From the sequence record KM190144: a DNA stretch of 64,000 bases. One strand, written 5' to 3'. The stretch is from Escherichia phage Av-05. Position 1 is the stretch's first letter, and the number at the start of each line of letters is the position of its first letter. Positions 20,524-51,984 of this stretch are shown here, piece after piece. The notes under the pieces were generated by a model. The model had not been told where the DNA came from, did not search any database, and worked only from the letters and a program-made list of their open reading frames with translations. Position numbers and translations under genes: made by a program.

Positions 20524-21162
20524 TTACTCTGATATAGGGTCTGTTTTTGATCTTCTTTTCTGGACTTTCTTGGGTCTTCCTGTGATATGTGACCATGAGT
20601 ATCCATTATTTAAAGAAGATATTGTATTTCTGGAAACTCCGAATAGTTCCGCAATAGCTTTGTGTGTTATCCCACAATCAATAAGCCGTACAATCTCTAA
20701 AACTTTCTCCTTTGTAAGGACAGATAAATGATAATCATCACCAAATTTTTGGATTCTCCCCATACTATAAGCCACTGTATTGTTATGGCTATAGGTACAC
20801 CACTCAAGATTTTCAACTCTATTATTATGTCTGTTACCATCTATGTGGTTTATAATTGGAACTCCTAGCACAGTTTTTCTGCATTCTTTCTGCAATTCTG
20901 GAGAAGGAGGCTCTTTAAAAGCCTCCGCTACAAGTCTATGGACTGAAAAACTTTTCCCTGAATCTTTACCCCTTTTGTACAAGCACACGCTCGGATAGCA
21001 TTGTGGAGATAAATTTTCACTTTTAGTTTTTAAATATTTCCACATTCCTGATTTAAAAGATCTTACATTTCCATAATTACTTACTTGATAATCAGGATAC
21101 CCTACAATATCCTTCCAAATTTCCTCTACTTCATCAGTGGGAATCTGCCCATGTGTATCCAC
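20524..21162 (-). CDS. HNH homing endonuclease, free-standing
   Basis: YQVSNYGNVRS (NUMOD4-like) and INHIDGNRHNNRVENLEW... (HNH) motifs; overlaps 3' end of polymerase exon 3. Confidence 0.65.
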   Translation of the reverse strand: MDTHGQIPTDEVEEIWKDIVGYPDYQVSNYGNVRSFKSGMWKYLKTKSENLSPQCYPSVCLYKRGKDSGKSFSVHRLVAEAFKEPPSPELQKECRKTVLGVPIINHIDGNRHNNRVENLEWCTYSHNNTVAYSMGRIQKFGDDYHLSVLTKEKVLEIVRLIDCGITHKAIAELFGVSRNTISSLNNGYSWSHITGRPKKVQKRRSKTDPISE

Positions 21163-21433
21163 AAAGATATTCTCCTGTAATTAAAACGGGAAGCCCCATT
21201 ATCTTAGACGCTTTTTCTACACATTTTGTTGCAAGCTCTCCTACTGGGCAATGCAGTATCCTGTATTTCCCATACACATCAGGTTCAACAATAACTTTAC
21301 CTGCTTTCACATAATGTCCGTCGAAACGATGGCCTTTTTCAAGCATCATATCTACATAGCTTTGTGCAGCCTCTAAGTTAGAATGCTCCGTTATTGATTT
21401 AAATCTTTCCGGTACTTGTACCTGTATCTCATC
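21134..21433 (-). CDS. DNA polymerase, family A (T7 gp5-like), exon 3 of 3
   Basis: starts DEIQV (motif C HDE after splicing to ...YYH); C-terminus resembles T7 gp5 end. Confidence 0.6.
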   Translation of the reverse strand, partial: DEIQVQVPERFKSITEHSNLEAAQSYVDMMLEKGHRFDGHYVKAGKVIVEPDVYGKYRILHCPVGELATKCVEKASKIMGLPVLITGEYLCGYTWADSH

Positions 21434-22276
21434 CACTAGTTCAAGGAGTTCGCTACTCTCCCCCGCACCGTTACGTGCATAGCCACAAGATTTCTCCTGT
21501 GGGTCAGACTATATCATAACCCTTTTTCAAGGGTTCCTCCCGTTTGGACCGCGCTTGCTGGCCTACTCTACTCGCTTCTTCACATCAGATGAAGCTGATG
21601 CTATGCTTTCGATAGTCGTTGAACGTCACTTACCAAGTATAGTCTTTAGAGATATGCACCCACAATCTCCGTTGTTTAATTCCTTTTACGGATGGGTAGG
21701 GGTATCCGAGATCTCTAATCTCGCATTGCCTTAGCCCTGACTGTAGCAATTCACAAATCTCTCTCACATCTTTTTCTGTGAGAATGGCATTCGCATTGTT
21801 TTCACCAATAGGTATAACACGTAATCCTGTATCGTAAGCATGTTTTATATTGCTGCCATGTGTCCCCCACTCAAGATTCCACGCTGCGTTATTAAGTTTG
21901 TTTCCATCTTTATGATTAACGCTGGTGAATCTTTCTGGATCTGGATTAGGCACAAAACATTCTGCCACCATCCGATGTATGGCTTTCGTACAGGACTTAC
22001 CGTCTATCCTTATAATTGTACACAGATATCCCCTCCCATTATCAAATACCTGCAAGGGAAGTTTATCTCTTTTTGAAAGAGGCGTGGAACCATCTTCAAA
22101 AACTGTATACCCATGGTAATCTTTTGCTTTTACCATTTTACTATACCTCTTTAAGTTTTCGCTGCGGATTGGCATATTGTCCTTATAACACAATACATTA
22201 TAAGAATCAACTTAGCTTTCCCGACAATTAGAGAGGTTTTCGACATGCATTACTGCATGAAGCCACAATGTTATTT
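21434..22276 (-). mobile_element. group I intron 2 in DNA polymerase gene
   Basis: on sense strand: starts right after exon T, in-frame stop, P-like aattgtcgggaaa, Q-like caatccgcagcg, R-like cgttcaacgactatcg, S-like gatatagtctga, ends in G; boundaries within a few nt. Confidence 0.6.
21630..22136 (-). CDS. intron-encoded HNH homing endonuclease
   Basis: HKDGNKLNNAAWNLEWGTHGSN HNH motif; start at ATG preceded by AAGAGG. Confidence 0.6.
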   Translation of the reverse strand: MVKAKDYHGYTVFEDGSTPLSKRDKLPLQVFDNGRGYLCTIIRIDGKSCTKAIHRMVAECFVPNPDPERFTSVNHKDGNKLNNAAWNLEWGTHGSNIKHAYDTGLRVIPIGENNANAILTEKDVREICELLQSGLRQCEIRDLGYPYPSVKGIKQRRLWVHISKDYTW

Positions 22277-22609
22277 ATGGTAGTAGATAACCCTTCTGAC
22301 ACCCTGGTCGTACCATCCCCGTTTCACCAATTCCCAATGGAACAGGACTCCCATGAGGTCAAACAATGAAGCACCACCGTTTTGTTGGTAAGCATTCAGC
22401 AGAGAATGTTTAGAACGAGTCCAAATTTTACGCCCATCCATACCTGGAATATAGCGTCTCCCATTTGCCTCCCAGAATTTTTCTAACCACTCCCTACGCA
22501 TTTTCAACCCGAAGTTACTATCCCAGAATGCGTCTATTACAGCCTGTGCTCTATTAAGGGGGATACCCAGCATTGCGGCTATCTTAGGAGCTTGTGCTCC
22601 ATACATGAT
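22277..22609 (-). CDS. DNA polymerase, family A, exon 2 of 3
   Basis: IMYGAQ... and GMDGRKIWTRSKHSLLNAYQQNGGASLF align with T7 gp5 motif B region and downstream. Confidence 0.6.
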
Positions 22610-23343
22610 CATATTGTTCAACATGGCTCGCTACACCATGCCCGTCCTTTTAGGAACTGCTACATATTTCTATGCAGATCAGACTATATCTTCATCCTTT
22701 TCAGGATGCCCACCGCTTCGGCAGTCTGAAAGACTGGAGGTTTCCCTCACCGCTTGGCCCTACGCCTTTCGGCTAGTCGTTGAAGTTTCGAATGCTTCCC
22801 AACATTTATGTTCTATTTGATGGCATTTTTTACAAAGTAATTCAAAATTACTTATTTCGTTATTCGTCCTGTCATGGTCAATATGATGAACGCACCATTC
22901 ATCTTTACCTGCATAAAGAAGATCTTTATTACATCTATTACAGTATCTTCTCTGTTCCTTTATGACAGGGGATAACTTACGAAACATCGATATGCCATTT
23001 TTATAAAATTTGGACAATTTCCCACGAGGCTGCCCACCACCTTTTCCTATGCCAACTCTGTCAAGCCTATTTTCTCTTTCGGCCTTTCTGCGTCTATATT
23101 CTCTGGTTTTTATCTTTGAATATTCTCTTCTACAACCTTCAGAGAGACATACTTTTTGATTTTTACCAGTTTTAACACATTGTTCACCGCAGATTATACA
23201 ACAAAATGTGCCCATATTCTCCCTCCTTTTGTAAGAGGGAAGCATTCGCTTACCTGCTGATTATCTTCGACATAACTCGGTCAGATTTCCCAGCAATTCA
23301 ATGGGTGCACCTTACAAATTACTTTGTAAGGGGGCTATCATTA
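22610..23343 (-). mobile_element. group I intron 1 in DNA polymerase gene
   Basis: sense strand begins taa after exon ...ITYG; P-like aattgctgggaaa, Q-like aatcagcagg, R-like cttcaacgactagcc, S-like aagatatagtctga; boundaries within a few nt. Confidence 0.6.
22760..23215 (-). CDS. intron-encoded HNH homing endonuclease
   Basis: Cys-rich N-terminus, CVHHIDHDRTNNEISNFELLCKKCHQIEH HNH motif; ATG with AAAAGGAGGG SD. Confidence 0.65.
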   Translation of the reverse strand: MGTFCCIICGEQCVKTGKNQKVCLSEGCRREYSKIKTREYRRRKAERENRLDRVGIGKGGGQPRGKLSKFYKNGISMFRKLSPVIKEQRRYCNRCNKDLLYAGKDEWCVHHIDHDRTNNEISNFELLCKKCHQIEHKCWEAFETSTTSRKA

Positions 23344-25380
23344 ACCATACGTAATCCCCTTTCCTCCAGAGCGTGTTACCTCCTTTCCTGCTGCTATTGT
23401 GTATGCTCTTGCGTTTCGTTCATGGGCATCCTCTTCCATCATGATACGTAAATACTCACCACCATCAAACTCAAAAGCCCCTGCTGCAGCAATCATACCT
23501 TCTAAGTTAGACCCGTCACAACCCATCAGGTAGTAGCCTTCAGGGACTGTCCAAAGACCCCGCATTTCTTTTCCCAACAAAACCTTCGGATCAGGCTTGG
23601 GCATGTTTGCGCAAACAGTGTGCTTGCACCTGCCCGTGTTAGTGATTCCAGAAAAACGTGCTGGAAGTTTTCCGTCAATGTCTAAACGAGGGTGATTTAA
23701 TAACCCTGTATCCGTCTTGTCCTCATCCATTGGGTCTAAAACAGATCGCCTGTTACGAAGTGATAACCACTTAACAATCTGTTTTGCCATATGCACATCA
23801 ATTTTCTCCAGATTTGGACACAGATGCCCAAAATTATCTTTTAGTTGAGGAGATGTCGGTAACTGGCGTGCCTTACGCCGAAATTTCTTAAATATCTCTG
23901 AATAACCTCTTTCAGATGCATGTCGATGGTCAAACTTACGCTCTGAAATGTTGAATTTCTCATCTGAATCATTAAGGTAGTCAAGAATAAGAGATTTATA
24001 CTCAGACTCAGCCAACTCTTCTATGTACTTCTTAACTAGTACATCAATTTCAGAATCTTCTCTGGCCTTTTTAAATTGATCCTTCGTAACGTCCTTTACA
24101 CGCCACAGTGTAGGTTTCCAACCAGCATCTTTGATCAGATATTTTTTAATGTCATCTTGATTGGAGATTTTCATTGGAACCATTAAATCTGGCATTTTTC
24201 TGTTTCGAAGGTCTTCTTTAGCCTTCTCTAGAAGATCCGGCGGCAAAGGTTCGAGTGTGTTCTCTTTGGTTCGCTGGGAACGAATGAAATTACCGTATAA
24301 AGCCGGATCTTCAATGCCATTCTGGATGCAATATCTCTCCCCTGCTGCACTTACATCCCCATTACTCTTAAAAGCTGTTTTTGGTGGGGCTTTAAACTCT
24401 AGAGCTTCTCTGTTAACAGGATAACCAAGTTTATATTCCAACCAATTCCACCCATGATAAGATATATTACCCGCTGTGTCAAAAGGGTTAGCTGGGAATT
24501 TTGGTTGTTGGGATTTCGTCATCTCTTTTTTTGGAAGAAGTGGTTCTACCTCTTCTTCAATCTCCCGCATCATCTTATCTATGCGGTCTCTTAATTTTTC
24601 TGCCTCCTCTCGATTAAAGTATACACCCTGTATTTCTTGCTCTATCATCAAATAGTCTGTGAGCATTCTCCTACGTAATGCATTTTTCCAATTAATCTGG
24701 TGCATCCCGTGAGGTTTATCAGCATACATGAACTGCTTGTCATCAGGCCATCGCGTACCATTTGACTCGTCAATAAGAGCTTTCCACACAAGTTCGTTAA
24801 TGATAACGTCTTCCCACACACGGTTTACATATTCCCACAATGGTTGATTACGCCAATCATCAATCTGTACTTTCTTGTTTGCCACACGATAACCCCATGC
24901 CAATAAGCCGTGTGGCCCAACCCTATCACGTTTTCCTGTTACAGGGTTTAATACAGAGTCTGGGCAGCCATTAGGCAATGGGCGATCTGGGTAAAGAACA
25001 CGACTCATTGAAAGAGTGTCGTAAAGATTTACCTGTTTATTACCTATCGTCCCCATACATTTTGGGTCTTTGAACATATCATATTCAATCCCAGAAAGTT
25101 TTTTCCACAGACGTAAATCATAGCCAAACAGGTTATGTATTGCTATCCCTCTTGGTTCGGTCTGTAACCAAGAGTAAAAATCATCATAAGAAAGGATTCG
25201 TAAATTAACACCTTCTTTGCTGCGTGCAAAATTAACTGCACTCTGGTATTCCTTGTGAGCAGGATCGAGAAACAACACCCAGTTATTTACAGCATATTCT
25301 TTAAAAAGTGTGCAGTGATATTTAGTTGCCTCTTCTAATAATCCGTCAGCCTCTGTATCGGCTAAAAAAAGTCCTTTCAT
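23344..25380 (-). CDS. DNA polymerase, family A, exon 1 of 3 (3'-5' exonuclease plus N-terminal polymerase part)
   Basis: MKGLFLADTEADGLLEEATKYHC resembles T7 gp5 N-terminus (exo motif I); ends KGITYG at motif B; start at ATG with TAGGAGGAG SD. Confidence 0.65.
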
Positions 25381-25575
25381 ACTCCTCCTATTCAAGATGG
25401 GCTTGACTGTATCGTCGCCCATCTCTTAGTTGGTTATAGATTATGTGGAAAACTACCTATTTTTGATTTATGTTTCTTTGCCAAAGGGCTTCTCTTGGCG
25501 GGAATGTATCCCTCAAGCCCCTTGGCAACACGAATAGCTAACTCATCATATTTTACATGTATCCTCTTTTTTCTC

Positions 25576-27576
25576 TCAAAATGGAGAATCGCTATCTAAA
25601 TCTTCAGGTTGCTCAATCACAACAGCAGGTTCTTGTTGAGGAACAGAAACAGCAATTTTCCCCACAGGTGTTTCAAGTTCCAGACTTTGAATCATTGATT
25701 TAGGTCTTAGCATTACCTCCCCATTAAGTTTAAACATACCATCTTCCCACACCCAACCAGATGCATCAGAAAACTGACCATTATCATCCATAATCAGAGT
25801 ATCCGCTATGCCTAATTTTTTGTGTGGACGGTTTTTCAAAACAACACTACGAATACGCCCACGAGATCGGTCAGGGAGTTCTTCAGGCTCGACACCTAAG
25901 ACAACCCACGATAACTGTTCGAGTGCTGCACTTCCCCTTAAAGATTCTTTTCTCACCGGATACCAGAAAGGTAACAAATTACCTTCTTTATCTTTCGGAA
26001 TTTGTATATCAACACGCTTCATATGACTGATACTGAGGATAAACACGTCATATTTTTTGCAGAAGGCAGCCAATTCCGTCATGATGTTATCTAAATCTCT
26101 TCTCTCGTTATCAGATTTTAATCCTGATATCACCATCGACAAGTGATCTAAAATAATCCACCTACACCCGTCAAGGAAAACCATCTGTTTCAATTTTTGT
26201 AGTAATTGGTCAGTCGGTATTGAACCAAAGTGATCAAAAATTTTAACCTTATCTTCGGCAATCCACCGTTGGTGTATAGCTAAGTGCTGCTCATCGGTAA
26301 GAAATTGCTCTGGATCTGCAACAAATGCTTTCGGGTCAATTTTTAACTCCTCAGCATATAGACTGTTTACAGACTCCTCTTCATCCTCCTCTAGACGGAT
26401 AATTGCAATTTTCTCGTTCTCTTTCCAACCGTCCAGTCGGGGAATATCCATGTTACGGAGGTACTCGATAATTGCATACTCAATCTTTCTTGAGAAAGTT
26501 GATTTCCCAGCTCCAGATGGGCCTGTCAGTGTCCACAATTCTCCTGTTCGTGGGCCTCTTGTTAGTTCATACAAACGAGGAAAGCACGGCAACGGAACGC
26601 CATCTTTTTTCTTTTTACGGAGATTTTCAATAGATATTCTCTCCAACCCAATCAATTTGTCTGGAACATATTTATCCTGCGCTTTAGCAAACATGTTCCA
26701 GATATCCATCCACTTACCTTTTTTGTAAATATCCCGGATATCTTTAACACCATTTGGGTCATTGCGTTCATTTGGGTATCGTGCAACGTAGATATTGTCA
26801 GACAGTAAAAAACCTGCGACATCATCTGTAGCTTCCTTGCCTTTCTTAATTCTGTGTTCTTTTTCCCTTGCTGTGGCTTCATCATTGTCTAAACCAAGGA
26901 CAATCTTTTCATATTCCCTGATAAACTTTTCGTTGTGGGCAAATGTATCTACCGCATTGGCTGTTCCACAGTTCAACCCGATAAAAGGTAATGTCGGGCA
27001 ATTAGAAACCTCCTCACCATCCTGAATGGCTTTGATACCTTTTAAAGCATTGTTTGCCCACTCACGTACTGAACGTGACGTATTAGGATTACTATGAAGA
27101 AATTTAATATACTCAAACCCAGCTTGCCAGCCAGCCGTTACATCGCCTTCCCCCTCAACAATAAAGATCTGTTTTTTACCAGATCCCATAGAGGCCTCAT
27201 GTTGACCAAAAAATTGAGAGGAAGCCTTTACTGTGCCAACAACAGAGAAATGCCCCTTTTTCTCTTTCGGAACAGTCCAGTCTCGTTTCTTGTACCCTGT
27301 CAATTTCCCATATTTGTCATAATATGGAAGATATGTTGCCACTACTGTAGTACCGTCTTTCAAATCTGTTGCAGATCTGATCTTGAAGTACTTAGCTGCA
27401 TCTAAACTAATATCCATTTGGGGGACAGCCAAGATCCTTGTACTATCCAGGACAGACTCTACAGTTTCTTCTTCTTTTTTCTGATAATTCACTTTACCAC
27501 CACTTTTTGTAGGTCGGAATGCTTTTGGGTTCTCACCTTCAAAGTATGCACCAGCCCCCCATTTTGTAATCTTCAT
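25576..27576 (-). CDS. primase-helicase (T7 gp4-like)
   Basis: Walker A GPSGAGKST, Walker B-like WIILDH, acidic C-terminal tail ...DSDSPF. Confidence 0.6.
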   Translation of the reverse strand: MKITKWGAGAYFEGENPKAFRPTKSGGKVNYQKKEEETVESVLDSTRILAVPQMDISLDAAKYFKIRSATDLKDGTTVVATYLPYYDKYGKLTGYKKRDWTVPKEKKGHFSVVGTVKASSQFFGQHEASMGSGKKQIFIVEGEGDVTAGWQAGFEYIKFLHSNPNTSRSVREWANNALKGIKAIQDGEEVSNCPTLPFIGLNCGTANAVDTFAHNEKFIREYEKIVLGLDNDEATAREKEHRIKKGKEATDDVAGFLLSDNIYVARYPNERNDPNGVKDIRDIYKKGKWMDIWNMFAKAQDKYVPDKLIGLERISIENLRKKKKDGVPLPCFPRLYELTRGPRTGELWTLTGPSGAGKSTFSRKIEYAIIEYLRNMDIPRLDGWKENEKIAIIRLEEDEEESVNSLYAEELKIDPKAFVADPEQFLTDEQHLAIHQRWIAEDKVKIFDHFGSIPTDQLLQKLKQMVFLDGCRWIILDHLSMVISGLKSDNERRDLDNIMTELAAFCKKYDVFILSISHMKRVDIQIPKDKEGNLLPFWYPVRKESLRGSAALEQLSWVVLGVEPEELPDRSRGRIRSVVLKNRPHKKLGIADTLIMDDNGQFSDASGWVWEDGMFKLNGEVMLRPKSMIQSLELETPVGKIAVSVPQQEPAVVIEQPEDLDSDSPF

Positions 27577-27727
27577 CTCTTCTCCTTAGAAGGGTTTGGC
27601 AACTACAGCCATATACCAGCCATTACACACAGATATGCCACCTGAGATACAGTAGCCTTTTCTAAACCAAGTGTTTAGTTTTGATTCTAATTCTGAAATA
27701 CTGGTTCCTGTGAGAATCTTGACATTT

Positions 27728-28468
27728 TTATCCACCAACCCTCCTAAAATCATTATATAGGAATACAGCTTTGGCAAAACCTCTTGGGGTTAACGATCTT
27801 ATAACCTTTGTCTTTTTTGATTTGCCACCCAATTTTAGGTGCTGCTCAGAATACCCGTCTAACACGGGGACGGGTAATTTCTCAGGCATCTTAAAACCAT
27901 TGCCTGTCCACAAACAAGTCTTTTTAGGGTAGGCATCTCTGGGTTTTATGTATTCTGGAAAAAATGGATGAACATCATTCTCTGGTAGATACCCGCCGTA
28001 CTCATAAGGATGAAATGAATAGTCTGGTTTACGCCACAGAGAAGATAGAACACTAACTGGATTTTCTATCATGTAAGGGCAGCCGTATTCATCTGCCAGC
28101 CTTGCTGCCACTTTTGCTGTATTTACAGCCTTTATCTGGAATAAAGGGTCTTTTGCAGCTTTTCTTGCGAAATGCGCTGCGCCACTAACAGCCATATCTG
28201 TGCATGGTGGGAATGCGAATATAATACTTGGCGTACATATCCCTATCTCTACTGGGTTAAACTGGTCGTCTATCCAAACATTGATATATTCTATATTTTT
28301 GTGTTTTATTCTGATACTTTCATAACCACCGTGATCAGCGCCATCATAGTTAAGGCATATTACTTTGTACCCATTCTTTGCCCACTCATAACCCATGATG
28401 CCGGATCCGTCAAACATGCACAAAACTGTATCACTCAATACACCTCCTATACCAGAAAACAGGCCCAT
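27728..28468 (-). CDS. DNA (cytosine-5) methyltransferase-like protein
   Basis: FSGIGG (motif I-like), PPC (motif IV-like), ENP (motif VI-like); short, no obvious target-recognition domain. Confidence 0.4.
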   Translation of the reverse strand: MGLFSGIGGVLSDTVLCMFDGSGIMGYEWAKNGYKVICLNYDGADHGGYESIRIKHKNIEYINVWIDDQFNPVEIGICTPSIIFAFPPCTDMAVSGAAHFARKAAKDPLFQIKAVNTAKVAARLADEYGCPYMIENPVSVLSSLWRKPDYSFHPYEYGGYLPENDVHPFFPEYIKPRDAYPKKTCLWTGNGFKMPEKLPVPVLDGYSEQHLKLGGKSKKTKVIRSLTPRGFAKAVFLYNDFRRVGG

Positions 28469-28495: not shown

Positions 28496-28717
28496 TCAGT
28501 GCAATACTGCATGAACAGGGCTTCCATCAGCCCCGTAAGGAATGTCTCGTACCTGGGCCAGCCTTTTCACTAAAGTATACACCAGCCAACCTTCAGCTTC
28601 ATGTTGTCCTGCAATATCATAACCATCATCAAGAAGTTCAGCCAGTTTGTTCTCTACTTCTTCTCTTTTTGTTCTGCTAATTTTGAACTCAATGAGTTTA
28701 ACAGTGTTTTTAACCAT
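28496..28717 (-). CDS. hypothetical protein
   Basis: 73-codon ORF. Confidence 0.3.
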   Translation of the reverse strand: MVKNTVKLIEFKISRTKREEVENKLAELLDDGYDIAGQHEAEGWLVYTLVKRLAQVRDIPYGADGSPVHAVLH

Positions 28718-42644: not shown

Positions 42645-43460
42645 GTGACAGAGATATTCTGTATGGACTGGAATGAAGAGTTTACAACCAAAGAGATAAG
42701 GTATCTCAAAACACGACTCTTTTTCAAAAAGAGGAATGCCAAAGCAAGGGGTATAGAGTTTAATCTGACAGAAGATGACTGGTTTATGATGGGTAAAGGC
42801 TTACTTGGGAAAGGTGTTTGTGATTACACAGGCCTACCTTTTTCTGCAACACCTAATGACCCTCTCTACCCATCTGTTGAACGAATAGATGACAAAAAAG
42901 GGTATGTTCGTGGAAACGTTTGTGTAGTCGGCAAGAGAGCAAACCAGTTAAAAGATTTTCTTGTAGACAAAAAGAAAGCTCTAACGATTGTAGACCCACT
43001 TGACATGGATATCGTCCAAGGGATGATATTAAATATGTCAAAGGACCACTTGGAAAAGTTAAAACTTAAACACATACCTACGGAAACAGATATGAAAGAG
43101 ACAGAGAATGTAATTATTAATGAGCAGGTTGAAGAGATGAAAGAAAAATCTCTTCCTGACGATGTTGAAATTGCACTTGCATACGCAAACTACTGTAAAA
43201 CATTTGCGGAAGCAGGTATGAATGTTAGCGTTACTTATGCACAATTTAAGGCTAAATATTCAAGAAACACCTGTTCTCTGACAGGGGAGAAGTTAACAAA
43301 AACACCAAAACCTATTCTCATTATGGATTTAGATCTTGGGTTCGCAAAAGACAACTTTATTATTGTTTCTGAAAAGATGGAAACAGCATTAACACAACTC
43401 ATGATCAATACGAAAATGAGTTTACCAAAAATCACAGCTATGCTGAATAAGGTGGTTTAA
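42645..43460 (+). CDS. hypothetical protein with two internal repeats
   Basis: two C.(Y/S)TG... modules; first gene of + early block. Confidence 0.35.
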   Translation: MTEIFCMDWNEEFTTKEIRYLKTRLFFKKRNAKARGIEFNLTEDDWFMMGKGLLGKGVCDYTGLPFSATPNDPLYPSVERIDDKKGYVRGNVCVVGKRANQLKDFLVDKKKALTIVDPLDMDIVQGMILNMSKDHLEKLKLKHIPTETDMKETENVIINEQVEEMKEKSLPDDVEIALAYANYCKTFAEAGMNVSVTYAQFKAKYSRNTCSLTGEKLTKTPKPILIMDLDLGFAKDNFIIVSEKMETALTQLMINTKMSLPKITAMLNKVV

Positions 43461-43663
43461 TGAAAGATTTTCTACCAAAACAGTGTCCATTTTGTAAAAA
43501 TGATGCACTTTTGCTTAAACAGAAACGCTCTGGGCAAACAGTTTTCCACTACATTTATTGTCAGAAATGCGGGACTTCTGGACCCCACGCGCTGAGTGAG
43601 CTTAGTGCTATAAGTTGGTGGAATATCGGCAGCAAGAAATTAAAGGTAAAAATGTATGTTTGA
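43460..43663 (+). CDS. Lar-like zinc-ribbon protein (restriction alleviation family?)
   Basis: CPFC...C.KCG...WN pattern in 67 aa. Confidence 0.4.
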   Translation: MKDFLPKQCPFCKNDALLLKQKRSGQTVFHYIYCQKCGTSGPHALSELSAISWWNIGSKKLKVKMYV

Positions 43664-43919
43664 AGAAATTCTTGGGAGACCAGCTACCCTTCAGGAAGCC
43701 CAGATGATTGAATCTGGAAATAAGCCAAATTTTAAAGTTGGTGATAGGGTTATTTATAAAAATGCAAAGAACATTAAAACTTCTGTAGAAGCTATCGTAC
43801 TTTTTATGTTCCCAAGCCAACCATCAGGAAAGCAAGTTCCTGTATGGGGAGCCAGATTAACTGGTGGTAATAATTTTATGCCGCTTGATACCATAGAATT
43901 ATTTACAAGTAAAAAATAA
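43656..43919 (+). CDS. hypothetical protein
   Basis: 87-codon ORF. Confidence 0.3.
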   Translation: MFEEILGRPATLQEAQMIESGNKPNFKVGDRVIYKNAKNIKTSVEAIVLFMFPSQPSGKQVPVWGARLTGGNNFMPLDTIELFTSKK

Positions 43920-43970
43920 CAAGTATAATAGGCTGTCGAAAGATAGCCTATTTTTGTATGGAGAATAGTT

Positions 43971-45407
43971 ATGCAAAAAGAAGAATATGAAATGATTGCC
44001 AGATTAGAGAAGGATGCTGTAAAAATTATCCAATCGGCACGAATAGCTCTTTTAAAGTACCGACCATTCTACGGTACTTTGTTAAGTTCTCTTCCTTTAG
44101 TTGCGAACTGGAAATGGTTGCCAACAGCAGCTACTGACCACAAAAACCTCTACTTCAACCCTGAGTTTATTATGGGTATGCCTGAAGAAAGGAAGAAGAA
44201 GGTTTTTGAGCGTGTGGATAATCACCCCACAATGACACAACAAGAAAAAGATGACTATAAAGACTATGTGAACGTATTTTATCGTAAGAAAACACCCAAA
44301 GAGGTTGTTGTTATTCTTATGCACGAGCTACGTCATATTACAAATGACCATCTATCTCGTGGAAAAGCATTTGACTCTAAAACCTACAACACAGCAGCGG
44401 ACCACTATATCAATACAGATTTGGTAGTATCAGATCTCGGACCGCGCTCAAACCAGATGTGTTTCTTCCCAATGGGGAAACAGACAATCTTTGACAAAGA
44501 TAAAGAGTTTGGGTTTATGGCTTATTGCTATTGTGATTTTAATTTCCACGGCATGACAGCAGAGGAGATTTACAGTCTCATAAACAAAGGCCAGCCGTCT
44601 GTTGGCAAACCTATGGGCACACACATAGGGGATTATGATCAGGACAGCAATATCCTAGGGTATGAAGATCCTCACCCAGTGCCAAGCCAGACAGAAAAAG
44701 ATGATAATATGTCGTGGTCATCTGGTCTTATCGAAGCAGCAATGGAAGCAGCGGGAGGAGAGGGGCCGAAAGAGGTGCGTGATGTTATTGCAAGAATGCG
44801 TAAACCACACATAAATTATCTTCAGATAATAAAACAGCGTATGCTTTCTCGGATCAAGTCTAACCTGACATACAGGAAGCCATCTCGTAGGTCTGGATCT
44901 ATGACACAGGCACTTCGACAGTACGGAGCTATCGGTAAAAAACAGCATATCGTTTTACCAGGAAGAGAGTACGATAATACTATCGATATAGTTATTGGTT
45001 TTGATGTGTCTGGATCAATTTCGAAGGCAAATTTGGACAAAATCTTTGGAGAAATCGTAGGATTATGCCAGCTTTACCGTGTTTTTCGCGTGACATTGTT
45101 CTGTTGGTCAACAAAAGTCGGAGAGGTTAAAGTTTATACACACGAAAACATCAAGGAAATGCTTGATTATAAAGTGAATTCTACTGGTGGGACTCTTGCA
45201 GCATCAGCTTTTGAGTATATTGAAAATAACATTTTTGATGCAAAAGACGTTATTATTTTTACAGACGGGTATATAGAGGATTTAAGCCACAAGAAAAAAG
45301 ATTGGGGACGCAAATGGGATATTCTTTGGGTTATTTGTGGTCGTGGAAATAATAAATTTGTACCACCTTTCGGAAGGGCTGTAAATTTAGATGAACACGC
45401 AAAATAA
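43971..45407 (+). CDS. vWA-domain protein with N-terminal HExxH metallopeptidase-like motif (CobT/CoxE-like)
   Basis: LMHELRHITNDH motif; C-terminal MIDAS-like DVSGS; likely partner of the AAA+ ATPase at 39022-40230. Confidence 0.55.
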   Translation: MQKEEYEMIARLEKDAVKIIQSARIALLKYRPFYGTLLSSLPLVANWKWLPTAATDHKNLYFNPEFIMGMPEERKKKVFERVDNHPTMTQQEKDDYKDYVNVFYRKKTPKEVVVILMHELRHITNDHLSRGKAFDSKTYNTAADHYINTDLVVSDLGPRSNQMCFFPMGKQTIFDKDKEFGFMAYCYCDFNFHGMTAEEIYSLINKGQPSVGKPMGTHIGDYDQDSNILGYEDPHPVPSQTEKDDNMSWSSGLIEAAMEAAGGEGPKEVRDVIARMRKPHINYLQIIKQRMLSRIKSNLTYRKPSRRSGSMTQALRQYGAIGKKQHIVLPGREYDNTIDIVIGFDVSGSISKANLDKIFGEIVGLCQLYRVFRVTLFCWSTKVGEVKVYTHENIKEMLDYKVNSTGGTLAASAFEYIENNIFDAKDVIIFTDGYIEDLSHKKKDWGRKWDILWVICGRGNNKFVPPFGRAVNLDEHAK

Positions 45408-45825: not shown

Positions 45826-45928
45826 AATTTAACCACACAGGGAGGCTAACGCACGTAGTCTCCCATATGTCCCCATTTCAGGGACTATGTTATAGTAGTC
45901 CTAACAAAACAACAAAATGGAACCTAAA

Positions 45929-46192
45929 ATGAAAACTTTCAACGAATTCATCTCAGAATCGTCTGGTGTGAAAATTAACAAAGCGGTCAATCAGGTTATT
46001 GCTGATATTCTTAATTTGTATAACATTGACTTAACTCCGCATATCACGCTTGGTAACAAACGAAACTTTTTCATATTTAACACATCCGAACTTGACGAAA
46101 ATCAGTTCAATAACATTCAACGTTTTGCGAATGATAAAGGTCTTCGACATGAGCCTGGTGGCTATAAAAAATACGCAATATATTTGAAATAA
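45929..46192 (+). CDS. internal-protein-like small protein
   Basis: N-terminus MKTFNEFISES resembles the T4 internal protein capsid-targeting sequence. Confidence 0.4.
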   Translation: MKTFNEFISESSGVKINKAVNQVIADILNLYNIDLTPHITLGNKRNFFIFNTSELDENQFNNIQRFANDKGLRHEPGGYKKYAIYLK

Positions 46193-46252
46193 AGGTATAC
46201 AAGCCTATAGGACTATGTTATAGTAGTCCTATTAAAACATGAGGAGAATATT

Positions 46253-46558
46253 ATGAAATTAGGCGAAACCAACCGAATTGGTCTTTTTACAATATTTGCA
46301 TCACCTTTTTACGCAGCTCTTTCTGTTGCAGTATTACAAAAGGCTTACGATATGGATGGTGTTCCTGGTTTTGTATTCTTATCACCATTTTTATTATTCG
46401 TCGGGGCTTTGTTATTATATGCCACGACTAGTTTTGACCATAACGTCTGGGTTAATTATAAATGTAAATTGTCTGAAGAAGAACATGCAGAAGCTCGTAA
46501 AAAAGCTATTGAATCTACCAATCTAGAAAATTTCATTAAAGAATGCCGAGGAAAATAA
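46253..46558 (+). CDS. membrane protein
   Basis: hydrophobic helices. Confidence 0.3.
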   Translation: MKLGETNRIGLFTIFASPFYAALSVAVLQKAYDMDGVPGFVFLSPFLLFVGALLLYATTSFDHNVWVNYKCKLSEEEHAEARKKAIESTNLENFIKECRGK

Positions 46559-46559
46559 T

Positions 46560-47246
46560 ATGAATAGTTCTAAAGTGTTTAATAGTCAAGCTCGTGCAGT
46601 AGGTGGTTTTGCTCATAACGTACAAAATGACCAAATCAAAAATGAACCAATGTTCTTTAACTGTGATTTGAGTTTTGCTTGGGATAACGGTGGTCCAATT
46701 ACTCGTAGCTTTATCCAAAATCTCCCTGACGATTGGAAAGGCTCGGATGTAGTATTTGATTCACGAGTCCACATGCTGATGCCTGGTTGGTATCCTGCTA
46801 TTCCTGGATATCACCATGATGATGTTCCTCGCCCTGATATTCCAGTCGGCCAACACTTTATTACTGCAGGACAACCTGACTATGATAACCCTCGTTACCA
46901 TTCTGAACATATTCTTGGTCTTGTTAACGCTGATGTGTGTCCTACTCATTTTGCAACAGGAACTGCAGAGTTCAGTCAGATTCCTGATGGCGAACTTATC
47001 TATCGCCAGTGGCACAAAGAAGTCCTCGAAAAAATTGAAAAAGGTGAACTAGAGAAATGGGAAGCTCCGGACCGTACTCTTCTTCAGTTTGATTGGCAAA
47101 CATGGCACACTGGTTCTCGTGCAATTAGTAATGGATGGCGTTGGTTCGGACGTGTATCTCGTAATACAGACCGAGTTAAAAAGATTACTAATGAAATTCG
47201 TGTCAATGCTCAAGTTTATCTGGAATTCCCTATGGAAGGCTGGTAA
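46560..47246 (+). CDS. hypothetical protein
   Basis: 228-codon ORF, His/Asp/Trp-rich. Confidence 0.35.
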   Translation: MNSSKVFNSQARAVGGFAHNVQNDQIKNEPMFFNCDLSFAWDNGGPITRSFIQNLPDDWKGSDVVFDSRVHMLMPGWYPAIPGYHHDDVPRPDIPVGQHFITAGQPDYDNPRYHSEHILGLVNADVCPTHFATGTAEFSQIPDGELIYRQWHKEVLEKIEKGELEKWEAPDRTLLQFDWQTWHTGSRAISNGWRWFGRVSRNTDRVKKITNEIRVNAQVYLEFPMEGW

Positions 47247-47737
47247 TGATTAACAAAACATATTGGTCTAATATAGACGACGGTAATGAAGGTATTTCGT
47301 ACTATTCAGTAGATTGGACAGGATGTCCATCCTACTTAGTGAAACGTATTTGTCAAGAATTTAAAATCGACCAGCCAGCAGGTATTATCGTGAACAGATA
47401 CATTAATGGATATCAACCTATCGATGAAGTAATACGAACAACTCAAGCTGAGCTTGAAAAGTTTTTCAATAAGTGCCAATGGATAACAGGATGGATTATA
47501 TTTGTACCGTCGGTATGGTTTTTTAGTACTAAAGTAAGTGCCTTTGCCATACCAGATATTATCGCTATATTATTAGCATCTACTATCGTAAGTATTATTG
47601 GTGGTATTATTGGTGGAGGTACTATAGGCATCATTATTAATCTTGTTAAAAGTAGTTTACAGGAACGTAAAGACAAGATAAAGGCCAAGAATAATGAAGT
47701 TGAACGTTTTATTACCGAATGCAGGAATTTGAGATGA
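47246..47737 (+). CDS. membrane protein
   Basis: hydrophobic segment with GG(I/T)IG repeats. Confidence 0.3.
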   Translation: MINKTYWSNIDDGNEGISYYSVDWTGCPSYLVKRICQEFKIDQPAGIIVNRYINGYQPIDEVIRTTQAELEKFFNKCQWITGWIIFVPSVWFFSTKVSAFAIPDIIAILLASTIVSIIGGIIGGGTIGIIINLVKSSLQERKDKIKAKNNEVERFITECRNLR

Positions 47738-47970
47738 GTATAGCAATTTACATTAAATCAGAATCATGTGATAGTTATCTGTACACATATGATAAAGATG
47801 TGTCAGAAGAAAAAATCAAAGACGATCTTAATATGGACCTTGATATGTTCTGTCCTATTGCAGATTACAAACTTGCGGTTTCTAATAGTGAAAGTCCATC
47901 TAAAGAAACGCGCATTGAAGAATTTATGTCCGAATTAATGGCCAAATCATGGGACCGAGATGATGAGTAA
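47719..47970 (+). CDS. hypothetical protein
   Basis: 83-codon ORF. Confidence 0.3.
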   Translation: MQEFEMSIAIYIKSESCDSYLYTYDKDVSEEKIKDDLNMDLDMFCPIADYKLAVSNSESPSKETRIEEFMSELMAKSWDRDDE

Positions 47971-48418
47971 GAAAAATAAAGTGAAAGAACTATCAGCCGG
48001 TATTATCTTCATGACAAAAGATAAAGAGTTATTCATGGGCCGTGTAACTGGTTCTCGTCCTAAAGGTGCATTAGCTCATCGGTGGGATATTCCTAAAGGC
48101 CGTGTCGAGCCAGGTGAATCTCCTATTGAAGCCGCTATTCGTGAATGCGAAGAAGAAACTGGGTTTACACAATATGACCCTGCCTTCCTGAAAGACCTAG
48201 GCGAACATCATTACTCAGACAATAAGAATATTCATCTATTCCAATATACCATCCCTGTAGAGCACGAGCAATTCAGAAACAGTGTTTGTAATTCCTATCA
48301 TACATTCCCAGACGGACGACAGATTCCTGAATTTGATGCATTCGCTTTAATTAAACCTTCTCAATGGGAATATGTAATGGGCAAATCATTATATAAGGTG
48401 CTCACTACCATCCTATAA
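47960..48418 (+). CDS. nudE: Nudix hydrolase
   Basis: Nudix box GRVEPGESPIEAAIRECEEETG; immediately upstream of e as in T4. Confidence 0.6.
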   Translation: MMSKKNKVKELSAGIIFMTKDKELFMGRVTGSRPKGALAHRWDIPKGRVEPGESPIEAAIRECEEETGFTQYDPAFLKDLGEHHYSDNKNIHLFQYTIPVEHEQFRNSVCNSYHTFPDGRQIPEFDAFALIKPSQWEYVMGKSLYKVLTTIL

Positions 48419-48425
48419 GTAATAA

Positions 48426-48451
48426 ATACCTCCTATAAACGTAGGAGGTAT
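48426..48451 (+). promoter_or_regulatory. SD-sequestering hairpin with late-promoter-like TATAAACG in the loop
   Basis: perfect inverted repeat ATACCTCCTA/TAGGAGGTAT; 3' arm is the ribosome-binding site of e. Confidence 0.5.
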
Positions 48452-48452
48452 T

Positions 48453-48941
48453 ATGAATATATTTGAAATGCTTCGTAATGACGAAGGTCTTAGACTGACT
48501 TTATACAAAGACACCGAAGGCTTTTGGACGATTGGCATAGGCCATTTAGTAACAAAGAACCCGTCTTTAGCCGTAGCTAAAGCTGAACTTGACAGAATGA
48601 TCGGTCGTAAATGCAACGGTACAATTACCCTTGATGAGGCTGAAAAGCTATTTAATGAAGACGTCGATAAAGCCGTTCGCGGAATCTTGGGTAATGCTAA
48701 ACTTAAACCGGTATATGATTCTTTAGATGCGGTTCGTCGATGTGCATTGGTCAATATGGTCTTTCAAATGGGTGTAGCAGGCGTTGCTGGTTTTACTAAT
48801 TCTCTTCGTATGCTTCAACAGAAACGTTGGGATGAAGCGGCAGTAAATCTAGCCCAATCTAAATGGTATCGTCAGACACCTAATCGCGCGAAACGCGTAA
48901 TCTCAACATTTAAAACAGGAACTTGGAAAGCGTATATATGA
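48453..48941 (+). CDS. e: T4-type lysozyme (endolysin)
   Basis: about 80 percent identical by eye to T4 lysozyme (MNIFEMLR...EGLRL...YKDTEG...TIGIGHL...). Confidence 0.9.
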
Positions 48942-49219
48942 AAACATACAGTGAATTTTTATCAGAATCTATTCTTAACGAAGCTACTGACACATTTGCA
49001 ACTAAGCTAGGTGCAGCTTTAGTTGAAGCTGAAAGTCTATTAGCACGTATTTCTGAACTTGCCAGTAAGATAGATACTCGCAAATTTGAGCGCACCAGTG
49101 ATATCGTTAAGCTTGAAGCACTGCTGCGTATGTGCGATAAACCGGAAGAAATCGCTAAGAACGGCTCGTTAATGAAACAACGTCTTGAAAAATATATTTC
49201 AGGCGCTTCAGAAAAATAG
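48938..49219 (+). CDS. internal-protein-like protein
   Basis: N-terminus [11 protein letters not shown]; ATG overlaps the e stop (ATGA). Confidence 0.5.
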
Positions 49220-49220
49220 T

Positions 49221-49250
49221 GTTTACTTCCTCCAAGGGTTTTGATACTAT
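49221..49250 (+). promoter_or_regulatory. T4-early-type promoter
   Basis: -35 GTTTAC, 17-18 nt spacer, -10 TACTAT; spacer is inverted-repeat partner of the denV SD. Confidence 0.5.
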
Positions 49251-49277
49251 ACATCTATCAACTACTTGGAGGAAATT

Positions 49278-49691
49278 ATGACTCGTATCAATTTAACACT
49301 TGTTTCTGAACTGACCGACCAACATCTTATGGCTGAGTATCGTGAATTACCTCGTGTATTCGGTGCAGTCCGTAAACATGTTCAAAATGGTAAACGTGTA
49401 AAAGATTTTAAAATCTCTCCAACATTTATTTTAGGCACGGGCCACGTAACATTCTTTTACGACAAACTCGAATTTTTACGTTTACGTCAAATCGAGCTAA
49501 TAGCTGAATGTTTGAAACGTGGTTTCAAAATCAAGGACACGACAGTCCAGGATATTTCCGACATTCCTGTAGAATTTCGTAATAATTATGTCCCGTCCGA
49601 AGCGTCCATTGCGATAAGTCAAGCACGCTTAGATGAAAAAATTGCTCAACGTCCCACTTGGTACAAATACTATGGTAAATCAATTTACTAA
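49278..49691 (+). CDS. denV: endonuclease V (pyrimidine-dimer glycosylase)
   Basis: near-identical by eye to T4 endonuclease V ([12 protein letters not shown]...[16 protein letters not shown]...). Confidence 0.9.
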
Positions 49692-49697
49692 GGAAAA

Positions 49698-49958
49698 ATG
49701 AAAATGTATCAAGAATTTATCACTGAAGCGGATGCCAAAGACCCCAAATTTAAAGTTAAAGCTTTCATTGGTGATGCGGAAGACTTTGGCTCATTAAAAC
49801 GTAATGGGTATTCTTTCTTAGGTGGCGATGGTAAAGAAATCAACACCTATGCAAAACGTAGTGAAATTGCTTATGTTGTAGCAAGTCCTAAAGTAGATGC
49901 TGATGATATTGGATACGATTTTAACAACTTCGGAATTATTTCTGGCGGTAAAGCTTAA
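49698..49958 (+). CDS. internal-protein-like protein
   Basis: N-terminus MKMYQEFITEA. Confidence 0.5.
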   Translation: MKMYQEFITEADAKDPKFKVKAFIGDAEDFGSLKRNGYSFLGGDGKEINTYAKRSEIAYVVASPKVDADDIGYDFNNFGIISGGKA

Positions 49959-49961
49959 ATT

Positions 49962-49991
49962 GTTTACGCTTAAGTATTAATATGGTATAAT
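49962..49991 (+). promoter_or_regulatory. T4-early-type promoter
   Basis: -35 GTTTAC, about 18 nt spacer, -10 TATAAT. Confidence 0.45.
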
Positions 49992-50021
49992 TACTCTATC
50001 AAAACAAACAAGGAAACAAAA

Positions 50022-50600
50022 ATGAAAACATATAAAGAATTTATCGCCGAGGCCTTTGCAGGAAAAGCTCAAGGCATTAATAAGGACGAGTGGAATTATC
50101 GTGGCGGAAATGGTTTTGACCCTAAAACTGCTCCACTTGAACGATATCTAGCCACAAAAGCTTCTGATTTTAAAGCCTTCGCTTGGGAAGGACTACGCTG
50201 GCGTAACGATCTAAATATTGAAGTTGACGGACTTAAATTTGCTCATATTGAAGATGTTGTTGCTAGTAACTTAGACGCAGCTTTTGTTAAAGCCGACAGT
50301 GACCTTCGTCGCTGGAATTTAAAACTGTTCTCTAAACAAAAAGGCCCGAAGTTTGTGCCTAAAGCAGGTAAATGGGTCATTGATAATAAATTGGCTAAAG
50401 CTGTCAACTACGCTGGTCTTGAATTTGCCAAGCATAAATCATCATGGAAAGGTCTTGATGCAATGACTTTCCGTAAAGAATTTGCCGATGTTATGGCTAA
50501 AGGTGGCTTTAAGGCAGAAATAGATACCTCTAAAGGTACGTTTAAAGACGCTAATGTTCAGTACGCTTACGCCGTCGCTAATGCGGCCCGTGGTAATTAA
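50022..50600 (+). CDS. internal-protein-like protein
   Basis: N-terminus MKTYKEFIAEA matches the T4 capsid-targeting sequence. Confidence 0.5.
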   Translation: MKTYKEFIAEAFAGKAQGINKDEWNYRGGNGFDPKTAPLERYLATKASDFKAFAWEGLRWRNDLNIEVDGLKFAHIEDVVASNLDAAFVKADSDLRRWNLKLFSKQKGPKFVPKAGKWVIDNKLAKAVNYAGLEFAKHKSSWKGLDAMTFRKEFADVMAKGGFKAEIDTSKGTFKDANVQYAYAVANAARGN

Positions 50601-50629
50601 TAAGGCCTATTTACATTTAAAGGAAACAT

Positions 50630-50959
50630 ATGAAAACGTATCAAGAATTTATCACTGAAGTTACATTATCTGCGGAACAGAAAGCTGCTATCGAAGAAGG
50701 TAAAAATCCCAAAGTAACATATAAAGTAAATGGTAAAGGCGTTTTTGATGGCTTGGTTCAAGACCCTGAATTGAAAAAAGCTCTTTCTAAAACTAATGCA
50801 TACTTTGCTCCTAAATTTAACGCAGCTGGTGTACTTATTGGATTGGATGTATTCAACTCTAAAGGTGTTCTATCTAATGCCTTTGGTTATGCCGCTAACA
50901 AAATTACCAAAGCCGCATGGGAATCCAATACCAAACAAGCTCAAAAGCCTAGAGTATAA
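50630..50959 (+). CDS. internal-protein-like protein
   Basis: N-terminus MKTYQEFITEV. Confidence 0.5.
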   Translation: MKTYQEFITEVTLSAEQKAAIEEGKNPKVTYKVNGKGVFDGLVQDPELKKALSKTNAYFAPKFNAAGVLIGLDVFNSKGVLSNAFGYAANKITKAAWESNTKQAQKPRV

Positions 50960-51133
50960 TTCTTGCCTAATAAAGGGAAACGCAACCTCTCCTCATGAAC
51001 GTCGAGTCCTCTGAGTGATGTACCTTTTCCAACCTGTAATAAGGTCGAGCCCAAGTGCGGTAATGGGTTTACATAGCGAGTCGAAGGACCTAACATGTGC
51101 CATGGAATGGCCCCAACCTAAAAGAGAAACTAA

Positions 51134-51673
51134 ATGAGAACATTTTTAACCGGACCTTATCTATCCCTGATGAATGCTTTTACACACCATTCTGATGCTA
51201 GAGTAGAAGAAATTTGTAAGAACGGTTATGCCCCACCATTTGAAGACGTACTCAAGCAGTACTGTACACTTCGTTTAGACGGCGGCAGACAATCAGGTAA
51301 ATCGACCGCAGTAACTAATTTTGCTGTTAATTGGCTGTATGATGGCGGAACAGTTATTGTTCTTTCTAATACTTCAGCTTATTCTAAAATTTCTGCTGGC
51401 AACATTAAAAAAGAATTTTCTCGTTATTCTAGCGACGATATTCGATTCCGTTTATTTACTGATTCTGTTCGTAGTTTTATTGGCAATGAAGGTTCTAAAT
51501 TCCGTGGATTAACGCTTTCTCGTATTCTATACATAATTGACGAGCCTATTAAAGCTCCTGATATGGATAAGATTTACAATGTACATATTAAAACAGTCCA
51601 ACACTGTTGCAAAAGCAAATATTGCAACGGCGGTAATGCTCGTCCTCAATTTTTTGTGATTGGAATGCAATGA
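51134..51673 (+). CDS. P-loop NTPase-like protein
   Basis: Walker A GGRQSGKST and Walker B-like ILYIIDEP. Confidence 0.4.
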   Translation: MRTFLTGPYLSLMNAFTHHSDARVEEICKNGYAPPFEDVLKQYCTLRLDGGRQSGKSTAVTNFAVNWLYDGGTVIVLSNTSAYSKISAGNIKKEFSRYSSDDIRFRLFTDSVRSFIGNEGSKFRGLTLSRILYIIDEPIKAPDMDKIYNVHIKTVQHCCKSKYCNGGNARPQFFVIGMQ

Positions 51674-51978: not shown

Positions 51979-51984
51979 GGTTAT

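Follow-up and report, generated by a model that had tools for sequence, protein, structure and literature searches.

A probable compact 'Dcm-like' C5 DNA methyltransferase encoded near the primase-helicase gene of Escherichia phage Av-05

Can a short protein that carries hallmarks of a cytosine-5 methyltransferase, together with little that resembles a target-recognition domain (TRD), be a working DNA-modifying enzyme? The question is raised by an open reading frame (ORF) on the minus strand of Escherichia phage Av-05 (sequence record KM190144), within a stretch of 64,000 nucleotides (nt) referred to here as the window (Table 1). The original prediction, made from the letters of the DNA, described the product as a short C5-methyltransferase-like protein that could be either an orphan methyltransferase or a related base-modifying enzyme. 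The first of these options is supported by the analysis presented below; the protein is very probably an active C5 DNA methyltransferase belonging to a compact phage 'Dcm-like' family, PHROG 757. This view is based on a fold search, on catalytic residues that are invariant within the family and on 55% identity to a phage Dcm reported to generate 5-methylcytosine (5mC).

The protein is a member of a large family of phage proteins. It displays a full-length profile match to PHROG 757 ('DNA methyltransferase'; E=9.4e-88, residues 13-239), and 4,556 homologues are present in a large protein collection, with 1,083 representatives among the 50%-identity clusters. These matches, together with the invariance of C89, E135 and P137, place the ORF far beyond chance as a genuine gene. 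A tblastn search located a homologue in 1,506 phage genome records, many of which annotate it as 'Dcm' or 'DNA cytosine methyltransferase'. The phages concerned include Drexlerviridae (Tls, Stevie and KarlJaspers), Vequintavirinae, SSE121-type Salmonella phages and Dhillonvirus, in addition to phages of Klebsiella and Campylobacter. Nearly all members of the family are proteins of 210-260 amino acids (aa); the short length is the family norm and not an oddity of the Av-05 gene. The blocks that define the family, FPPCTD, IENP, WRKPD..F.P.EYGGY, Y.K.T.LW and IRS.TP.GFA, are all found in the Av-05 protein, which has a single domain. In the four closest phages in GenBank the gene is labelled 'hypothetical protein', and the Av-05 gene is a previously unannotated member of a family that is already known, widely annotated and includes one experimentally studied enzyme. 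Two members of the representative library have additional domains. In P0269 (563 aa) an N-terminal compact C5-methyltransferase domain (residues 6-180) is fused to a D12-class methyltransferase, the latter being a Dam-type N6-adenine DNA methyltransferase (PF02086, E=2.5e-48), which points to DNA as the substrate of the compact domain. The second protein, P0244, contains an HNH_2 domain at its C-terminus.

It is the fold of the protein that decides the assignment. An AlphaFold2 model, built on a 51-sequence alignment (mean predicted local distance difference test score 94; predicted template modelling score 0.91), displays a Rossmann-like catalytic domain in which the PC loop follows β4, as is the case in C5 methyltransferases. 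When the model was compared with the PDB using Foldseek, the 50 matches at E<=0.001 comprised the methyltransferase domains of DNMT3A, DNMT3B and DNMT3C together with 3g7u, the methyltransferase of the E. coli prophage CP-933R. Generic Rossmann methyltransferases rank next, with only ∼120-140 aligned residues. The methyltransferase fold, on which the original prediction depended, is therefore present. At the level of sequence profiles the family matches DNMT3A (hhalign, E=7.7e-4) in an alignment where motifs I and IV line up (FPPCTDLAVSG against GSPCNDLSIVN for the latter), while a global alignment of the two also pairs ENP with ENV and 'KKTCLWTGN' with 'RARYFWGN'. The DNMT3A sequence used is 100% identical to PDB 5yx2_A, and that of M.HhaI is 100% identical to P0271. 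Searches of PDB sequences with either the single sequence or the family profile returned nothing significant, the best relevant match being the N-terminal half of M.HaeIII (E=0.17). Forcing M.HhaI into a global alignment gave a result devoid of meaning, and DNMT3A was the only protein to yield a usable alignment. Because the profile match to DNMT3A is significant, whereas comparisons with M.HhaI and E. coli Dcm are not, the family represents a DNMT3-like, divergent branch among C5 methyltransferases and is not a relative of the host Dcm.

The relationship to enzymes outside phages is nevertheless distant. DNMT3A and DNMT3B share 12-18% identity with the Av-05 protein and have a domain of ∼285 aa that contains motif IX and a larger TRD. 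DNMT3 works as a DNMT3L-containing oligomer on CpG. The phage family is also set apart from DNMT3 by a highly conserved insert of its own between motifs VI and VIII (WRKPD..F.P.EYGGYLP..HP..P..I..RDAY). E. coli Dcm and M.EcoRII-type enzymes (PF00145) carry out the same chemistry, have PC and ENV in register with the phage protein and are presumed, from the family name, to share the CCWGG target. Dcm, however, shows no significant sequence similarity to the phage protein. It is a 472-aa enzyme in which the TRD is large and motifs VIII-X are canonical, and its gene is paired with vsr; 'Dcm-like' is a functional label rather than a statement of orthology. M.HhaI and M.HaeIII are longer by ∼90 residues, contain PCQ, QxRxR, an 80-aa TRD, motif IX and the motif X 'GN', and belong to restriction-modification systems, in contrast to the solitary Av-05 gene.

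The catalytic motifs were assessed in 51 diverse family members with 34-76% identity to the query, using the residue numbering of the 246-aa ORF. Nine residues (C89, E135, P137, Y180, K182, T184, W187, R224 and G230) are invariant. The original prediction drew on three strings, FSGIGG, PPC and ENP, all of which are present (residues 4-9, 87-89 and 135-137, respectively). The latter two stand as motifs IV and VI. Cys89, conserved in 51/51 members, aligns with the PC of M.HaeIII, M.HhaI, E. coli Dcm and DNMT3A, and in motif VI the Glu and Pro are invariant and the Asn is found in 50 of the 51 proteins, the block aligning with the ENV of M.HhaI, Dcm and DNMT3A. By contrast FSGIGG is not motif I, as it lies in an N-terminal extension that is absent from the family. 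Both the sequence comparisons and the model identify FDGSG, a canonical FxGxG, as the true motif I; it sits in the loop between β1 and the first helix, and aligns with 'SLFDGIATG' of DNMT3A (hhalign) and with motif I of M.HaeIII. This motif is degenerate across the family, with its central Gly retained in 4/51 members. The absence of PCQ was noted correctly in the original prediction, the motif here reading PPCT.

The C-terminal half of the protein is less conventional. Y180, K182, T184 and W187 lie in a β7 strand that is placed by the global hhalign alignment on 'HRARYFWGN' of DNMT3A, with the two lysines on R-A-R, and it is plausible from this register that the KK pair is a functional analogue of the motif VIII arginines. 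R224 and G230 belong to the C-terminal 'IRSxTPxGFA' block, which, judged by its sequence pattern, appears equivalent to 'GNxVPP' and to 'GRSWSVP' of DNMT3A. The string 'RSLTPRGFAKAV' could represent motif X (compare GRSWSVP in DNMT3A) or resemble motif IX, no tool alignment having spanned the block. The earlier remark that there is no clear TRD is essentially right, since only ∼33 residues separate the motif VIII-like and motif X-like blocks. Variability is greatest in residues 31-70 and in a short loop, rich in indels, at ∼191-205 (numbering of the 236-aa form described below).

The N-terminal extension also bears on the length of the protein. While the ORF counted from its first ATG does encode 246 aa, as originally predicted, the real protein probably contains 236 residues. 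The first 11 codons of the ORF read ATG GGC CTG TTT TCT GGT ATA GGA GGT GTA TTG. The AGGAGG within the codons GGT ATA GGA GGT is a Shine-Dalgarno sequence, and the 'GIGG' of FSGIGG is this sequence read as codons. Residues 1-10 have no counterpart in the 51-member alignment, where proteins start ∼3-12 residues before 'V.SLFD.TG'; the extension is common to the closest relatives, such as P0001, and distant relatives have unrelated N-termini. In phage 19-1-2, which is 95% identical, the position of the ATG is occupied by ACG and a 1-nt indel alters the frame upstream of it, while GGAGG and TTG are kept and the start given in GenBank is the same TTG. Translation thus most probably begins at the TTG at 28438 to give a 236-aa product, a view supported by the family N-termini, the conservation of the Shine-Dalgarno sequence and TTG, the loss of the ATG in 19-1-2 and the GenBank start of the 19-1-2 gene. 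The predicted length is exactly that of the K42/Bas06 Dcm (711 bp) discussed below. It should be noted, as a point against the TTG start, that in 19-1-2 the frame is open further upstream and another start is conceivable.

The one family member studied experimentally came to light through escape mutants of phage K42, the genome of which is 95.4% identical to KarlJaspers/Bas06, isolated in a study of retron Ec86 (bioRxiv 10.1101/2023.08.16.553469). In 4/4 escapers the lesions were within or just upstream of the 711-bp dcm gene. Expression of K42 Dcm raised C5-cytosine methylation of the multicopy single-stranded DNA (msDNA) of the retron, measured by liquid chromatography coupled to mass spectrometry (LC-MS), and was toxic only in retron-carrying cells, whereas the C82A/E128A/K175A/K176A mutant was inert and produced no rise in 5mC (10.1101/2023.08.16.553469). 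K42 Dcm has later been cited as an accepted trigger of retron Eco1 (PMC12916289). Bas06_0055, described as a 'Dcm-like C5 cytosine methyltransferase', is 55% identical to the Av-05 protein over 229 aa. The mutated residues of K42 Dcm (C82, E128 and K175/K176) correspond with identical spacing to C79, E125 and K172/K173 in the 236-aa form of the Av-05 protein, which are C89, E135 and K182/K183 in ORF numbering. The enzymes belong to the same family, and they share a length of 236 aa and an Asn in motif II; both genes are solitary among early or replication genes. Formation of 5mC, demonstrated for this 55%-identical homologue, may by analogy be expected of the Av-05 enzyme. The two differ in their setting, as K42 and Bas06 are T1-like siphoviruses (Drexlerviridae) and the Av-05 gene is that of a Vequintavirinae/Avunavirus-type myovirus, with flanking genes that are not homologous to those of Bas06 dcm. 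They also differ in the variable loop between 'NGF' and 'LGGKS', which in K42/Bas06 is essentially unrelated to that of Av-05.

The target of the enzyme is less secure than its chemistry. The analogy with K42 Dcm gives CCWGG at best an even chance of being the Av-05 target. The CCWGG specificity of K42 Dcm was itself assumed by analogy with the host Dcm rather than mapped, its support being the mutation of CCTGG in the msDNA stem (10.1101/2023.08.16.553469), and the variable loop, in which ∼3/21 residues are identical to the K42/Bas06 enzyme, weighs against extending the analogy to Av-05. It is possible, if somewhat doubtful, that the protein is a true C5 DNA methyltransferase that targets something other than the inner cytosine of CCWGG, such as another or a relaxed sequence, a hairpin or single-stranded DNA. 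The recognition-like segment of only ∼33 aa and its divergent loop, as well as the lack of a detectable sequence relation to E. coli Dcm, are consistent with a different target. In addition, the K42 experiments were carried out in dcm+ MG1655, in which 5mC on the msDNA was scarce and the retron stayed silent in the absence of the phage enzyme (10.1101/2023.08.16.553469), observations that would be hard to square with host and phage enzymes of identical specificity. The BASEL authors, moreover, could not tie these genes to resistance to restriction in any simple way (PMC8594841). Against a different target, defence against K42 was lost when the CCTGG of the msDNA stem was mutated (10.1101/2023.08.16.553469), and the blocks that flank the loop (WRKPD..F.P.EYGGY and LGGKS..TK.IRS) are highly conserved throughout the family, as might be expected if the target were common to its members. 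K-12 MG1655 is named as the host in at least 74 of the phage records that contain a homologue. The genotype of this strain is mcrBC+; Dcm-type C(m5C)WGG is tolerated by it, but many other contexts of 5mC are not, and its use as a host by these phages thus appears to argue against a target other than CCWGG.

A more far-reaching proposal, which we regard as unlikely, is that the family as a whole reads DNA in a manner unlike the host Dcm, recognizing another or a relaxed sequence, the outer cytosine, or hairpin or single-stranded DNA, and that the Av-05 member may differ again, as the variable loops of Av-05 and K42 are unrelated. Such a mode of recognition would explain why retron Ec86 is activated by the phage enzyme and not by the Dcm of MG1655. 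The frequency of CCWGG in the window (49 sites, an observed to expected ratio of 0.5) was considered as a clue to specificity and proved uninformative, as CCSGG, GGWCC and CCNGG are equally depleted. A survey of the literature on Drexlerviridae, Vequintavirinae, rV5/PVP-SE1 and nanopore/CCWGG data revealed no mapped methylome or specificity for the family, only annotation-level statements or reports on unrelated phages.

Several observations weigh against an active C5 DNA methyltransferase in Av-05. The protein lacks the canonical QxRxR of motif VIII as well as motif IX. Pfam and NCBIfam scans returned no match, PF00145 being reached neither at its gathering threshold nor even at E<=10, and of the 51 family members three touch PF00145, with a best E value of 0.0067; a few close homologues do have a precomputed PF00145 match. 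Profile comparisons with M.HhaI, with an HhaI-family profile (20 members, too uniform at 71-80% identity) and with E. coli Dcm (hhalign E=0.22; BLASTP E=1.2) were insignificant, although PC and ENV align. The acidic position of motif II, Asp in 47/51 members, is Asn in the Av-05 protein, although this is also the case in the active K42/Bas06 enzyme. Finally, activity has been reported for the K42 enzyme, whereas the Av-05 protein is known from its sequence alone. The missing motifs, the lack of a Pfam match and the family-wide degeneracy of motif I would be accommodated by a protein that is not a working DNA methyltransferase at all, being either a catalytically dead DNA binder or decoy, or a Dnmt2-type RNA (tRNA) m5C methyltransferase. 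This is very improbable. The nucleophilic Cys, the Glu of ENP and the seven other invariant residues are strictly maintained down to 34% identity, indicating that catalysis is retained, and the Av-05 protein itself has the canonical FxGxG. Furthermore, the K42 homologue is active on DNA while its quadruple active-site mutant is inert (10.1101/2023.08.16.553469), and the fusion to a Dam-type DNA methyltransferase in P0269 is at odds with a dead or RNA-directed enzyme.

Transfer of a different group to C5 of cytosine, the nearest equivalent of the 'related base-modifying enzyme' in the original prediction, is equally improbable. Such a protein could, for example, add the carboxymethyl group of carboxy-S-adenosylmethionine (Cx-SAM), like the phage enzyme CmoX, as the first step of a hypermodification. 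E. coli makes Cx-SAM via CmoA, and the cofactor would thus be on hand in the host. SpCmoX (PDB 8yf3), a phage DNA cytosine C5-carboxymethyltransferase of 333 aa in the solved chain, reads SPPC, has Arg350 at the position of Asn304 in M.HhaI and usually travels with CmoA and ligase genes. The SPPC motif and the Arg at the Asn304 position of CmoX (PMC12783734) have possible parallels in the FPPC and invariant Arg224 of the Av-05 family. In the sequence register, however, Arg224 would pair with the Gly of 'GN' and Ser225 with the Asn, that is, with Asn304 itself, and the 'RS..P' pattern also occurs in DNMT3A, which uses S-adenosylmethionine (SAM) ('GRSWSVP', verified in the sequence). In the structure search DNMT3B, 3g7u and HhaI methyltransferases score equal to or better than CmoX, and the homologous K42 enzyme gave 5mC by LC-MS (10.1101/2023.08.16.553469). 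A CmoX-like carboxymethyltransferase was therefore set aside by the criteria of PMC12783734, as the protein has FPPC and not SPPC and, by sequence register, Ser225 at the presumed Asn304 position, and as a screen of 30 ORFs of the window revealed neither CmoA, a CmoY-type ligase nor another gene for hypermodification.

For the Av-05 protein as a C5 DNA methyltransferase, a mechanism can be proposed by analogy with established enzymes of this type. The target cytosine would be flipped out of the helix, Cys89 of PPC would attack C6 and Glu135 of ENP would protonate N3, with Lys182/183 replacing the motif VIII arginines that hold the base. SAM would be gripped by two elements, the loop of FDGSG and the RS..P helix at the C-terminus, and after passage of the methyl group to C5 the enzyme would be freed by β-elimination. 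As the gene sits in a leftward replication module, near the primase-helicase and DNA polymerase, phage DNA may be methylated during replication. We infer that the likely benefit is to shield the phage from restriction enzymes that are blocked by 5mC, with CCWGG/EcoRII-type sites as leading candidates. The BASEL authors regard the idea of protection as intuitive, but saw no simple correlation of the genes with resistance (PMC8594841). As for costs, enzymes of this kind are known to be capable of triggering retron Eco1/Ec86.

Table 1. Positions in the window of the methyltransferase gene, its motifs and neighbouring features (residue numbers refer to the 246-aa ORF)
Feature	Position	Strand	Remarks
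ORF counted from first ATG	27728..28468	minus	246 aa; stop included in coordinates; translation checked
Probable true coding sequence	27728..28438	minus	TTG at codon 11; 236 aa + stop
Shine-Dalgarno AGGAGG	28443..28448	minus	4 nt upstream of in-frame TTG (28436..28438)
Motif I FDGSG	28400..28414	minus	residues 19-23; predicted SAM-binding loop after β1; DNMT3-type 'LFDG' variant
Motif IV FAFPPCTDMAVSG	28181..28219	minus	catalytic Cys89 codon 28202..28204
Motif VI MIENPVS	28052..28072	minus	Glu135 codon 28064..28066
Motif VIII-like block YPKKTCLWTGN	27899..27931	minus	β7; stands in for canonical QxRxR
Minimal target-recognition-like segment	27800..27898	minus	33 aa; holds sole hypervariable loop of C-terminal half (conservation profile)
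Motif X-like block RSLTPRGFAKAVF	27761..27799	minus	C-terminal helix; R224 and G230 invariant
DnaB-type primase-helicase	25576..27576	minus	PF03796, E=1.4e-11; annotated DNA primase/helicase in relatives
Small ORF downstream	27586-27777	minus	63 aa; overlaps methyltransferase 3' end by 50 nt; unannotated in relatives
Small ORF upstream	28496-28717	minus	73 aa; matches phrog_10384, labelled 'DNA ligase'
DNA polymerase piece 1	23341..25422	minus	ends right after motif B '...KGITYG' (by eye)
DNA polymerase piece 2	22271..22624	minus	ends '...YYHK'
DNA polymerase piece 3	21134..21436	minus	begins 'MDEIQV', inside motif C 'HDE' (by eye)
HNH endonuclease ORFs separating polymerase pieces	22760..23245, 21630..22193	minus
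Another HNH endonuclease ORF	20524..21162	minus
Homing-type ORF	42645..43460	plus	phrog_3118
Homing-type ORF	43971..45407	plus	phrog_1314

The genomic context is that of an orphan gene. The predicted neighbour, the primase-helicase, is indeed the next large gene downstream, with the 63-aa ORF lying between the two. The long minus-strand block that surrounds the gene encodes DNA polymerase, primase-helicase, a PIF1-type helicase, rIIA, rIIB, RNA ligase, a thymidylate-kinase-like protein and several HNH endonucleases. A non-exhaustive screen of 30 window ORFs revealed no restriction endonuclease, second methyltransferase, CmoA, ligase of the CmoY type, hydroxymethylase or glycosyltransferase, and since no restriction enzyme was found among these ORFs the methyltransferase is counted as an orphan. 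No cognate restriction endonuclease is adjacent, the neighbours being two small ORFs that lack a credible annotation, the primase-helicase and other replication genes, and such nucleases as were seen are all HNH ORFs of the homing type, within and near the polymerase gene.

The small ORFs on either side were considered in the search for a conserved partner gene that might supply the missing TRD, but they are not homologous to those beside Bas06 dcm. The phrog_10384 label 'DNA ligase' on a protein of 73 aa is probably a mislabel. The two small proteins are weakly alike (30% over 40 aa, pairwise E=5e-5), sharing the pattern 'ELE.KL.....GY.I.G....GW'. The primase-helicase comprises 666 aa in the window and 975 aa in phage 19-1-2 (L001:6890-9817), where an in-frame insertion of ∼300 aa, which starts 'CLNGYVEFL...', follows residue 550 within the DnaB-like helicase domain; the insertion is most likely an intein that is missing from the window copy. 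The family-A DNA polymerase gene (21,134-25,422, minus strand) is apparently in three pieces, with HNH endonuclease ORFs between them. Matches to group I introns in Rfam were obtained just below the gathering score at 22660-22863 (E=8.6e-10), 22023-22286 (E=7.5e-8) and 21486-21790 (E=0.007), and the gene is likely interrupted by HNH-bearing group I introns. In all, five HNH or homing-type endonuclease ORFs are found in ∼25 kb of the replication module (20,524-23,245 minus; 42,645-45,407 plus).

The window itself appears to be composite. Positions 1 to ∼45,889 are 95% identical to Escherichia phages 18-1-2, 19-1-2, 24-2-1 and TH18 (Vequintavirinae/Avunavirus), the scaffolds of which end exactly at this point, while ∼45,882 to 52,000, the limit of the search, matches T4-like Tequatrovirus (phiC120, 100%; phiE142, 98%). 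The junction (∼45,880-46,235) falls within a 22-nt element, GGACTATGTTATAGTAGTCCTA, that is repeated at 46,211-46,232. The window thus joins two unrelated phage genomes. The cause seems to be technical, either a chimera made in assembly or a concatenation of contigs, and not biological.

The practical benefits of these data are of modest size. The immediate gain is in annotation, as the Av-05 gene can be given a corrected start codon and labelled an orphan C5 DNA methyltransferase. The corrections to the start codon and to the assignment of motif I are worth having, and the target specificity of so minimal an enzyme is an interesting question. Despite its great abundance, the family is not represented by any model in Pfam or NCBIfam. 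It is a candidate compact 5mC 'writer'; its relation to the DNMT3-type catalytic domain merits structural study. Should the family indeed read DNA in a manner unlike the host Dcm, its members would, to our knowledge, be among the smallest single-chain C5 methyltransferases known, and would represent a new mode of target recognition with swappable specificity loops. For the biology of the phages, family enzymes influence which restriction systems are escaped, and retron Eco1/Ec86 senses at least one of them as its trigger. BL21-type hosts carry this retron. The presence of such a gene is thus relevant to the prediction of host range and to the choice of strains in phage therapy.

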